DNA of 56,161 bases from Promethearchaeota archaeon (GCA_048940445.1 JBHLON010000024.1:1-56161); one strand, 5' to 3'; counted from the first letter of the stretch, positions 22,458 to 25,427 are shown. The notes: generated from the sequence alone by a model not told the origin. Numbers and translations are program-made.

Positions 22458-22985
22458 TTGGCTCTTAACATTAATTCAAATAAGGTTTTCGTATTGACAT
22501 CAGAATGGTCTATTCTTTGTAAGTTGGGAGGTTTTGTAAATAGTAATCCTGAATTGATTAGTACATACCCAATGCTTGATTTTGGAGAACATAATGAACT
22601 TTTATCAAAATGTTTTCCAATTGGAGCAAAACCAGGCGATTTCATCATGGACAAATATAATAAATACAACGTATTATCATATGTCTTCACTGTAAAACAA
22701 AAACAAAATCGAGACGATCTCTTTTCTTTGGCGATATTATTAGGCAAGAAAGATAAGGTAGATCTTTATAAGCCTGCTTTGAGCGAATTAATACGAATCT
22801 TAAATAATAACGATGTCTTGAATGAATATATTCTTTTAAAATATCAACAGACTATATATGAAGGAATTAATGAAGAGAAAGATGTCATTATTGAAAATAT
22901 CTTAATAGAATTCTCAAAAATATTTAATGAGATTAAATCGAAAATTTTAAAGGAAAAACCACAGTTAAAAGGGAGTTTTTTATAA
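22458..22985 (+). CDS. uDENN/longin-like domain protein
   Basis: PELISTYP...LLSKCFPIG resembles the uDENN P....YP...FCFPxG signature, followed by beta strands YVFTV / SLAILL and a helix; start codon uncertain (TTG). Confidence 0.55.
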   Translation: MALNINSNKVFVLTSEWSILCKLGGFVNSNPELISTYPMLDFGEHNELLSKCFPIGAKPGDFIMDKYNKYNVLSYVFTVKQKQNRDDLFSLAILLGKKDKVDLYKPALSELIRILNNNDVLNEYILLKYQQTIYEGINEEKDVIIENILIEFSKIFNEIKSKILKEKPQLKGSFL

Positions 22986-23629
22986 TGGTTGAAGATATGC
23001 TACTTGAAGGTTTTAGACTTACAGGATATGTTCTCAGTGCTATACTTATTCCATTAGCCGCAATAATCATCGGAAGGAAAGTTTTAAAAGAAAAAAAAGT
23101 TACAGGAAAATATAATATTGTCCGTACGATTACTTTTGGGGTTTTTTCGTGTTTTGCATTGATGAGTGTCTTAGAAATCTTAGTTGAGTTTTCAATATTC
23201 CCCTTCTTAAATGTAATATTTGGGGGCGGTATTGAAACAATAAACCTATATTCTATTTTGATTGGTACAATGGTTTCATTAGGGCTCAGCTTAGTCTTTT
23301 TTGCAAATAAATTGGAAGCAATGTACTTTTTCCCATTTTTTGTATTTGGAGGAATGGTGATCTTTTATTTTTTAACTGGATTTGATGCCATGGTTGAAAT
23401 TTATATTCAAATTGCAGCTATCGTTAGCTTAGTGTTTATTTTCTTTACGGCCTTTCGCGTTAAAGATAATGGTGCCCTCGGTTTAGCAATTCTTTTCACA
23501 TTAGCATTTAGTACTTTGATAATTAGCGTCTCATTTGTTACTCAGATTATTATTCTTTCTTATGATGTATTTACAGTGATACTCTCGCTTGGATACTTTA
23601 AAGTCTTTAAACAGGAGGTATTAGTATAA
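22985..23629 (+). CDS. 7-TM membrane protein A
   Basis: Seven hydrophobic segments counted by eye; TAATG stop/start overlap with the upstream gene. Confidence 0.8.
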   Translation: MVEDMLLEGFRLTGYVLSAILIPLAAIIIGRKVLKEKKVTGKYNIVRTITFGVFSCFALMSVLEILVEFSIFPFLNVIFGGGIETINLYSILIGTMVSLGLSLVFFANKLEAMYFFPFFVFGGMVIFYFLTGFDAMVEIYIQIAAIVSLVFIFFTAFRVKDNGALGLAILFTLAFSTLIISVSFVTQIIILSYDVFTVILSLGYFKVFKQEVLV

Positions 23630-23630
23630 A

Positions 23631-24281
23631 GTGTTGAATTTAGAATATATTATACCTGAAAGCTTTATTATAGCTTTCGCAGTTTTAGCTCTTATGCCTG
23701 TCTTTAAGAATTGGAAGGAAAGCAAAAACAGGATGTATATAGCAATCTTTGCTTATACAATCGGAGTGATTGGATATTCAGGGATTAATATATTTACGTA
23801 TTTATTTGAAATAGACACAAATGACTACCTAATTGGAAGCTTAAGATTCGGTTTCATTTTAGGATATATGCTATTGACAATTCAGTTCGAATTCATATTA
23901 TATTTAAGAGGATTAACAAAATTCTACACCTTGCCTCTCGTTATTGCTTTTTATCTTGTCTTAGGACACATATTGAACACCACATCAATGGTTTTTATAT
24001 TATATGCTATGATGGTTAGTTATGCTCCAGCTTATTTTCTACTGAGAGATGGTAAGAAGAAGAGGAATGGTTTAGCATTTGGAATGGGCTTATTCTTTTT
24101 AATTTGGGGAATAGGGCAGGCAATCCCAATTATATTAATAACAGGAATATTCAGAGCAATAGCTATGATAATGTTTTTTTTTGGAACCCGAGGGTTTTAT
24201 GAAAAGTATATTTTCGTCAGTCAAGAAGAAGAACAAAAAATTATAGGTACTTGGATTGCAAAGTTTGTTGCTAAAGAATAA
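23631..24281 (+). CDS. 7-TM membrane protein B (paralog of A)
   Basis: Seven hydrophobic segments; RNGLAFGMGLF aligns with DNGALGLAILF of protein A; GTG start 1 nt after the previous stop, with GGAGGT RBS. Confidence 0.8.
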   Translation: MLNLEYIIPESFIIAFAVLALMPVFKNWKESKNRMYIAIFAYTIGVIGYSGINIFTYLFEIDTNDYLIGSLRFGFILGYMLLTIQFEFILYLRGLTKFYTLPLVIAFYLVLGHILNTTSMVFILYAMMVSYAPAYFLLRDGKKKRNGLAFGMGLFFLIWGIGQAIPIILITGIFRAIAMIMFFFGTRGFYEKYIFVSQEEEQKIIGTWIAKFVAKE

Positions 24282-24530
24282 AATTCCGTATTTTTCTTAA
24301 TTTCTCTCTTAATAATCTTCTTTTTTTTAATGTTGGCTTTAATACTGGAATATAAAGAATAAAAGGCAATCAAAATCCATAAGTTCCCAATTAAATTTAG
24401 ATAAGGCGCCCATGATTAGAATAAATCTTGTTTTGTCGCAATATAACAAAAATTTGGAAGAAAGAATGCACTTTTATTTAGAATCTATTATCAATTTTTT
24501 AATAAAAATACTAAAATAAACTGAAAAAAA

Positions 24531-25427
24531 ATGGGAGTTAAAGACATTTTAAAAAGAATCTTTACTAAAGAAAAAAAAGTTGTGATTTGTGGATTAGATT
24601 CTGCTGGAAAATCAACTCTTGTATCATTTTTGCAAAATGGCACATTTATTGAACATACTCCAACAATGGGAAAGCAACTCACGCAGTTAGAAATTCAAGG
24701 AATTCGTATTAATATCATGGATATGGGTGGTCAAAAAGATTTCCGAGAATTATGGCTTCATGAAATGTCAGATGCAGAATGTGTGATCTTTATGGTTGAT
24801 GCATATGCTAAAGAAAGATTCAATGAAGCAAAAGATGAGTTATGGAAACTCTCATCTGTATTTAAAAAGAAACCATTGATAGTTTTAGCAAATAAGTATG
24901 ATTTAATGCCAATAGCTCAAGTCGGTGAAATAATTGAAGTACTTGATCTCTCTAAAATAGCGTCATTCGAGATTTTGCCAATATCTTGTAAAACAGGTTA
25001 TGGAATTGTCCCTGCTTTTATGAAGATTTATTACAGACTTACTGGCAAGCACTTAACGAAGAAAATAAATATTAAAGCTGTAACTGTTTTTGATCAAGGA
25101 GGAATTCCTTTAACTTCTTCTGATAACCAGCAAATTTTGCAAGGTGGATTATTTACCGCGATTCATAGTTTTGTTAAAGAATCTTTCAACTCTGAGTTAA
25201 ATCATTTAAAAATGGGAGAAAATCTAATAATATTTAAGCGTTCAAAACATTTACTAGGCTCGATCGTAGTAAATGAGAATGATAATGTAAATCTTAAACA
25301 AGCTGAAGAAGGACTAAATGAATTATTGTGCCATTTAGAACATATGTGTCCTGAACTTGATAAAGAAGAGTTAGATCAATCAAAAATAGAATATCTAGTA
25401 GAGCAATATGCATCAAATCTTTTGTAA
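24531..25427 (+). CDS. Arf-like small GTPase fused to C-terminal longin-like domain
   Basis: G1 GLDSAGKST, G2 PTMG, G3 DMGGQ, G4 NKYD, G5 SCK; N-terminal MG + amphipathic helix; C-term GGIPL...GGLFTAIHSF..E longin pattern. Confidence 0.9.
   Translation: MGVKDILKRIFTKEKKVVICGLDSAGKSTLVSFLQNGTFIEHTPTMGKQLTQLEIQGIRINIMDMGGQKDFRELWLHEMSDAECVIFMVDAYAKERFNEAKDELWKLSSVFKKKPLIVLANKYDLMPIAQVGEIIEVLDLSKIASFEILPISCKTGYGIVPAFMKIYYRLTGKHLTKKINIKAVTVFDQGGIPLTSSDNQQILQGGLFTAIHSFVKESFNSELNHLKMGENLIIFKRSKHLLGSIVVNENDNVNLKQAEEGLNELLCHLEHMCPELDKEELDQSKIEYLVEQYASNLL

Follow-up and report, generated by a model that had tools for sequence, protein, structure and literature searches.

The four-gene cassette and its proposed function

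The locus described here raises the question of what a small longin protein, two seven-transmembrane (7TM) proteins and an Arf-type GTPase do together when they are encoded side by side in an archaeal genome. The cassette lies in a 56,161-nt stretch of Promethearchaeota archaeon DNA (GCA_048940445.1 JBHLON010000024.1:1-56161, the whole of which is called the window below) and its genes are referred to as U, 7TM-A, 7TM-B and ArfR (Asgard Arf-related). The initial annotation of this DNA took U for a GEF-type adaptor (GEF, guanine nucleotide exchange factor). Our results point in another direction, and we lean towards reading the cassette as a membrane-coupled off-switch, in which U is a 7TM-coupled longin GTPase-activating protein (GAP) for the membrane-binding ArfR.

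In this scheme GTP-loaded ArfR would bind the membrane via its N-terminal helix, as expected from the biology of Arf and ArfR proteins, and U would dock on the P-loop and switches I and II of the GTPase, as seen in the predicted complex. R73 of U would then be inserted as an arginine finger, letting Q68 of ArfR hydrolyse GTP. The 7TM proteins, probably as an A/B pair, may use their conserved cytoplasmic face to bind U, positioning or gating the GAP upon an outside or membrane cue, a part of the scheme that only gene linkage and conservation suggest.

U resembles the longins of GAP complexes

The model of U (predicted local distance difference test, pLDDT, 88.8) shows the longin order β1-β2-α1-β3-β4-β5-α2-α3 followed by a short tail. 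Chains of the SEA and GATOR1 complexes were the best Foldseek matches, and an exhaustive VIA fold search placed a GATOR1 chain first (8fw5_B; Z 11.9, root-mean-square deviation (rmsd) 3.7, 153 residues aligned) and a SEA chain second (8adl_S; Z 10.3). The search names complexes alone; we took both chains to be NPRL2/Npr2, going by length and by the range of residues. NPRL2 is the catalytic GAP subunit of GATOR1. Complexes of FLCN, SMCR8 and C9orf72 were found at Z 7.8-8.8, DENND1A ranked behind the GATOR1 and SEA chains (Z 7.8, rmsd 6.8), and the fold matches also included DENND1, Mon1-Ccz1 and the longins of AP/COPI coats and SRα. Judging from the model, the nearest folds of U are GAP longins, with NPRL2/Npr2 first. 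The 163 aa of U consist of the longin and a short helical tail with no cDENN lobe, and in comparison with homologues of near length (163-167 aa) the tripartite uDENN-cDENN-dDENN module was not found. Pfam gave no match for U, 7TM-A or 7TM-B, and when the U alignment was run as a profile against PDB sequences, only chance matches came back.

An invariant arginine at the finger position

R73 (codon at approximately 22710-22712; U residues are numbered in the 163-aa form) sits in the β4-β5 loop of the model, between β4 (58-68) and β5 (74-83). Longin/DENN GAPs have their arginine finger placed between longin β4 and β5 (10.64898/2026.01.05.697756), and we consider R73 a candidate for this position in U, assigned by secondary structure of the model and not by residue-level superposition. 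The residue is invariant in the U alignment (44/44 rows), and in the broad U family the only invariant columns are P26, P42 and R73. The motifs P-x4-YP and KCFPIG, which had already been noticed in the first gene, are present with P26, P42 and G44 invariant or nearly so, and the conserved CFPIG loop is accompanied by a C-terminal KGSF motif.

R73 is kept in 75 of the 82 U homologues from the fetched loci, a set that leaves out L078, L079 and L108, where U was missed by the caller of open reading frames (ORFs). We sorted these homologues by their neighbours, counting ArfR or 7TM genes on the same strand and at most 2.2 kb from U: 47 had both, 15 only a 7TM gene, 3 only ArfR, and 17 neither. The arginine is kept in all 50 U proteins beside ArfR and in all 62 beside a 7TM gene (65/65 with any neighbour), and the seven homologues without it all lack both neighbours.

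Predicted complex of U with the GTPase

The complex of U with the full-length GTPase, GTP and Mg was predicted with a score of 0.81 (best control, 0.00). Of the solved pairs 58/80 reach the mark used for such scores, against 2/110 of the mismatched ones; for this case these counts are only approximate. The runs showed 100% contact agreement and partner pLDDT of at least 86. U contributes residues 11-19, 41-47 (the CFPIG loop) and 73-76 to the interface, and the GTPase contributes 23-24 in the P-loop, 41-49 in switch I, and 68-71 in switch II, Q68 among them. The surest contacts are M46 and G47 of the GTPase, which by our reading of the PTMG/PTIG motif correspond to I49 and G50 of ARF1, both required for the GAP reaction of C9orf72-SMCR8 (PMC8213707). 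As modelled, the pose of U over the nucleotide site is GAP geometry; GTP was supplied in the prediction and may bias the pose. We hold it highly probable that U binds its cognate ArfR, and with somewhat less assurance we regard U as the likely GAP of this GTPase.

The predicted geometry bears on two other roles for U. Effectors too bind switches I and II, and U could be a GTP-state effector or adaptor that tethers ArfR-GTP to the 7TM pair with no gain in hydrolysis, the 7TM proteins then being cargo or landmark of an Arf-marked patch. Binding of Arf-family GTPases by the AP/COPI coat and SRα longins would fit such a role, as would the lack of a second longin or cDENN lobe in U, and a complex score is no proof of catalysis. 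We nevertheless think this unlikely, as a plain adaptor needs neither an invariant finger arginine, lost only in copies with neither neighbour, nor an interface reaching P-loop residues 23-24 and Q68.

The other role is that of the initial annotation, a heterodimeric 7TM sensor activating ArfR via U as a uDENN-type GEF. The longin/uDENN-type fold proposed there was borne out by the model and by both fold searches, GEFs are common among longin/DENN proteins, the fold matches of U include DENND1 and Mon1-Ccz1, and synteny and the 7TM fold are compatible with this scheme. However, the GEF-type matches are lower and poorer (Z at most 7.8 against 11.9), a cDENN lobe is missing, and DENN GEFs use another surface (10.64898/2026.01.05.697756). 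Moreover, the pose is on a GTP-loaded site with the arginine loop within the interface, subject to the possible bias from the supplied GTP. With GAP longins first among the folds, an arginine at the finger position, no cDENN and docking over the nucleotide site, a GEF-type adaptor is not supported and we consider it very improbable. It may still be a 7TM protein that acts as GEF, with U as GAP.

The ArfR GTPase and its C-terminal tail

All G motifs of an Arf-like GTPase, as previously noted, can be read in the fourth gene (G1 GLDSAGKS, switch I PTMG, G3 DMGGQ, G4 NKYD, G5 SCK), and its Pfam Arf match has an E-value of 1e-34. The best PDB matches were 8OUN, 8OUM, 8OUL and 8OUK, which we take to be Asgard ArfR structures, and the basic/hydrophobic N-terminus aligns with that of 8OUN and is conserved in the cassette GTPases. 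By sequence the GTPase is of ArfR type. PTxG in switch I, DxGGQ and an Arf-like N-terminus are shared by nearly all of the 50 cassette GTPases; in L086:5330-5863, whose neighbours are a 7TM gene and a U with the arginine, switch I and G3 look degenerate. In a quick version of the GTPase tree the cassette GTPases separate from the 53 other small GTPases of the genome, with a joint branch support of only 60, by which a single origin is not shown.

The longin-like tail ascribed to the GTPase is there, and its similarity to Pfam longin models is weak (Intu_longin_1, E 0.007, under the cut-off). Such a tail is found in Loki-type cassette GTPases and is absent from the GTPases of approximately 175 aa in Heimdall-labelled cassettes. 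In the predicted complex it lies outside the interface and has no confident contact with U.

Longins of the tail type occur outside the GTPase as well. Free-standing copies directly follow gene B in L046:2934-3338 and L104:6484-6936. In L073:4573-5400 (minus strand; G384:C8) U is fused to one in a protein of 275 aa, which retains the arginine and adjoins neither a 7TM nor a GTPase gene, and which is either a functional fusion or the result of a deletion of the cassette middle.

These arrangements would suit a U that has GAP activity only when paired with another longin, either the GTPase tail longin or a second U, the 7TM proteins then being scaffold, comparable to NPRL2-NPRL3 and SMCR8-C9orf72. 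Solved longin GAPs do employ two longins (PMC8213707), and both the fusion in G384 and the free copies in L046 and L104 speak for such pairing. Against it, no contact between U and the tail longin is confident in the model, a second longin is missing from the Heimdall-labelled cassettes, whose GTPase has no tail, and the fusion in G384 may stem from a deletion. We consider an obligate pair quite unlikely and prefer U as a stand-alone GAP.

Two paralogous 7TM proteins with a probable GPCR-type fold

Both membrane proteins have about seven hydrophobic segments. The model of 7TM-A (pLDDT 90.3) consists of seven long helices, and the top 50 matches of the VIA search were all chains of G protein-coupled receptor (GPCR) fold (best ADGRL3, Z 15.3, 186 residues aligned), with no transporter and no enzyme among them. 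The structural alignments have 5-14% identity, and Foldseek returned GPCRs and rhodopsins, every one with an E-value above 0.001. 7TM-A and 7TM-B are paralogues (profile comparison: probability 95%, E 3e-8, 14% identity), and for 7TM-B a GPCR-type fold is suggested only by this homology. The profile comparison aligns DNG of 7TM-A with RNG of 7TM-B, in both just ahead of transmembrane helix 6 (TM6).

Conservation in 7TM-A is highest on the cytoplasmic face, with an invariant D161-N162 in the third inner loop. In the 7TM proteins, basic residues and conservation are concentrated in the inner loops (mean conservation 0.58-0.79 inside and 0.30-0.60 outside), a pattern that fits an N-out/C-in topology and a conserved cytoplasmic docking face. 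7TM-B has a conserved cytoplasmic tail with W208 and conserved intramembrane polar residues E10, Q85 and R/K175, the last in all 21 rows, which may form a possible ligand site.

Several known families were considered. Microbial rhodopsins do not agree with 7TM-A, which has no conserved K/R in TM7 and hence no retinal lysine, nor with 7TM-B, where 76% of rows have Arg at position 175, a site close to the outer end. The top fold matches of 7TM-A contain no PQ-loop/SWEET transporter, which is no formal exclusion. No Pfam GPCR match was obtained for 7TM-A or 7TM-B, and the GTPase linked to the pair is ArfR, not Gα. In the Atlas, the feature neighbours of 7TM-A/B at 0.93-0.94 are nameless clusters from Nanobdellota, Bdellovibrionota and Nitrososphaerota, and bacterial HisKA_7TM input domains score only 0.78-0.79, which is a lead only. 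The 7TM fold is common to prokaryotic sensors and does not make 7TM-A and 7TM-B GPCRs.

The 7TM-A/B family has 184 representatives at 50% identity and was found, among 400 genomes searched, solely within the order of the source genome. For the first 7TM protein of G003 no homology to 7TM-A/B was detected by sequence; the folds may still agree. Some 7TM-B proteins (P0260, P0293, P0297, P0303; L077:1779-2855) reach 300-340 aa; their C-terminal end is a small Cys/His domain that Pfam does not match, with a motif like C-x-H-x-F...YxDRNF. In L110:4425-5081 a similar domain seems to be joined to the N-terminal side of a U without the arginine, and several ORFs of the source genome match the expanded profile, probably via this domain, which may be a further cytoplasmic partner.

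Conservation and expression of the cassette

The order U-A-B-ArfR is kept throughout the family of the source genome, and other genera, including the cultured Lokiarchaeum ossiferum (L071), have ArfR-U-A-B. Heimdall-labelled genomes carry U-ArfR-7TM, often in several copies and with a different 7TM protein of 270-320 aa. Further loci combine U with one or two 7TM genes and no adjoining GTPase gene, and the 15 loci counted above belong to this kind. Synteny with the GTPase gene, whose absence would have told against the initial annotation, is conserved across Loki- and Heimdall-labelled genomes in several orders. With many genomes and several gene orders involved, the clustering is well beyond chance, and a linkage that survives rearranged gene orders, duplication and what looks like a swap of the 7TM family argues for one functional unit. 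Nearby duplicates of the cassette occur in several Loki genomes (L036, L043, L047, L075, L076), and nine U matches were found in the Heimdall-type genome G238.

From the linkage it seems very likely that the 7TM proteins act in the same circuit as U and ArfR; that they also sense a signal and control U is, on the same sequence evidence, an even call. The genes could also be linked with the 7TM pair unrelated to GTPase control and serving, for example, transport or lipid handling, which would agree with the variation of the 7TM family between lineages. We give this very little credence, since the linkage of U to 7TM genes is as strong as that to the GTPase and outlasts rearrangement and 7TM-family replacement, and since the top fold matches of 7TM-A hold no transporter or enzyme.

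In L. ossiferum the U, A and B genes are NEF87_004542-004544 and the GTPase is UYP48256.1. All four genes are covered by RNA contigs; in two runs a single contig of about 3.4 kb spans them, and cover is absent immediately upstream of the cassette and beyond 7.6 kb.

Several points weigh against a 7TM-coupled GAP. Known longin GAPs require a second longin or a cDENN lobe for holding the GTPase, and U has neither. The equivalence of R73 with the NPRL2 finger is one of secondary-structure position only, and the predicted complex, which gives no distance from R73 to phosphate, may owe its score to likeness to solved longin-GAP complexes (7MGE, GATOR1-Rag, FLCN-Rag). Before β2, U reads N18-P19 and not GP, the motif reported for GAP longins (PMC12290439); the Heimdall-labelled cassettes have G-L there, and other members, e.g. 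L062, L068 and L082, have exact GP. The 82 homologues come from loci picked by score, some on cut contigs, and related copies are not independent; they give a pattern, not a statistic. A GPCR-like fold by itself shows no function, and related 7TM modules are input modules of bacterial histidine kinases. No homology to 7TM-A/B was detected by sequence in the 7TM proteins of Heimdall-labelled cassettes, although the folds may still agree. The cassette is patchy, with U found in 80 of the 400 genomes. The RNA evidence consists of contigs from one study, which fit expression as an operon and do not establish a single transcript.

Relation to known systems

U shares with the eukaryotic longin GAPs (GATOR1 NPRL2-NPRL3, FLCN-FNIP, C9orf72-SMCR8-WDR41) a longin fold nearest to NPRL2, an arginine at the finger position, docking on switches I and II of an Arf-family GTPase (predicted for U) and a link to a membrane protein; the transporter PQLC2 recruits C9orf72-SMCR8-WDR41, which is an Arf GAP (PMC8213707). 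In contrast to them, U is a stand-alone longin of 163 aa with a short helical tail, no DENN module, no partner longin subunit and NP in place of GP, and it is encoded in an archaeal operon alongside its likely substrate. Avl9 and DENND6A are monomeric Arf-family GAPs which, like U, have their arginine finger between longin β4 and β5 (10.64898/2026.01.05.697756), but they grip the switch regions by a cDENN that U lacks.

In Asgard archaea, GAP-type longins (PMC12290439) and NPRL2-like longins (10.1101/2020.10.19.343400) have been described, with the arginine finger noted and GAP activity suggested. These papers assign no partner GTPase, operon or membrane component, for which the present cassette supplies candidates, and PMC12290439 leaves ArfR versus Rag as the partner open. 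The operon of Liu et al. is roadblock-Rab-DENN and distinct from U-A-B-ArfR. The cassette GTPase agrees with Asgard ArfR/AArf proteins (10.1101/2024.02.28.582541; PMC11914678) in its Arf-type motifs and N-terminus, with PDB matches 8OUN and 8OUK-M, and differs by the longin-like tail at its C-terminus. PMC11914678 describes the native GEFs and GAPs of Asgard Arf GTPases as not identified. PMC10933270 judges it difficult to match Asgard GTPases to regulators by gene layout, and states that the small GTPases of MK-D1 are generally without operon partners.

By analogy, the circuit is best read as a GAP linked to a receptor, on the pattern of plant 7TM-RGS proteins or of PQLC2 with the C9orf72 complex, and not as a GPCR acting as GEF. 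In plant AtRGS1 (PMC3718340) a 7TM protein is likewise coupled to a GAP and not a GEF, but through an RGS domain acting with Gα in a fused single chain, and no homology is shown. Actinobacterial conservons and related G protein systems (10.1101/2025.07.03.663114) also have operons that bring a small GTPase together with a membrane sensor and a likely GAP; the parts described there are a histidine-kinase-like sensor, a roadblock GAP and an MglA-like GTPase, none of which the cassette uses.

ArfRs, Asgard NPRL2-like longins and Asgard GAP-type longins were already known separately, and the cassette joining them appears new: our literature search, with subscription journals largely outside its reach, found no description of the U-A-B-ArfR operon. 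It names a specific candidate pair (U and ArfR) and a specific catalytic residue for archaeal Arf regulation, and it occurs in a cultured organism, L. ossiferum. If the proposal is true, U is an archaeal Arf GAP, longin-GAP chemistry predates eukaryotes, and GPCR-fold proteins are tied to small-GTPase control in archaea. The most far-reaching version is a complete prokaryotic receptor-GAP-Arf circuit, in which a minimal monomeric longin GAP stands under the control of GPCR-fold proteins and is the present-day equivalent of the protein from which the NPRL2/FLCN/SMCR8 catalytic domains descend, ArfR being its original substrate; we put it forward tentatively and with more doubt than belief.

Gene structure of the cassette and neighbouring genes

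The four ORFs are co-oriented and placed as the initial annotation had them, with three tightly coupled genes and the GTPase gene about 250 bp further on. The TAA of U (22983-22985) overlaps the ATG of 7TM-A (22985-22987) as TAATG, 7TM-A (end 23629) and 7TM-B (GTG start 23631) are separated by 1 nt (23630), and 249 nt lie between the end of 7TM-B (24281) and the GTPase start (24531). The description of 7TM-A and 7TM-B as two paralogous proteins of about 215 aa with (D/R)NG before TM6 also held, as did the expectation that they would match no known transporter or enzyme family as far as the top 50 fold matches of 7TM-A go. The length of 175 aa given for U has to be revised: the frame is open from 22458, and because the homologues have 163-167 aa and begin at the residue encoded at TTG 22494, this is probably the start.

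Table 1. Coordinates of the cassette features in the window
Feature	Position	Strand	Basis
U: stand-alone NPRL2-type longin, 163 aa; candidate GAP	22494..22985	+	start from homologues; fold; Arg conservation; predicted complex
7TM-A, 214 aa; GPCR-type seven-helix fold, N-out/C-in (predicted)	22985..23629	+	model, fold searches, conservation
7TM-B, 216 aa; paralogue of 7TM-A	23631..24281	+	homology to 7TM-A; conservation
ArfR GTPase domain; Arf-like basic/hydrophobic N-terminus, all G motifs, catalytic Q68	24531..25040	+	Pfam, PDB matches
C-terminal longin-like domain of the GTPase	25041..25427	+	weak Pfam longin matches; comparison of cassettes

U, 7TM-A and 7TM-B are each single-copy in the genome by single-sequence search, and the named U homologues come from Promethearchaeota/Lokiarchaeota and other Asgard-labelled assemblies. 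A minus-strand ORF at 22412-22747 was taken as a shadow of U. A promoter and terminator scan of this archaeal DNA, made with a bacterial model, gave nothing beyond chance.

Upstream of the cassette, the window encodes a protein of 250 aa with an N-terminal longin (20221-20973, plus strand; Fuz_longin_1, E 4e-4) and an FAD oxidoreductase (21044-22309), which occur together in this place in close kin only. A TPR protein of 785 aa (25469-27826, minus strand) is convergent on the GTPase gene and kept in most loci of the same genus. We do not count these three genes as cassette parts, since they are confined to close kin and missing beside the L. ossiferum cassette.

An Rce1-like CAAX-type membrane protease is encoded about 5 kb upstream of the cassette (16265-17077, minus strand). 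Three consecutive large surface-type CARDB proteins (32034-42431, minus strand) include two with a papain-family protease domain and one with DUF2341. Two tandem proteins of about 520 aa (47597-49165 and 49292-50857, plus strand) have a central Ras/Rab-like GTPase domain (residues ~169-330) between unannotated flanks.

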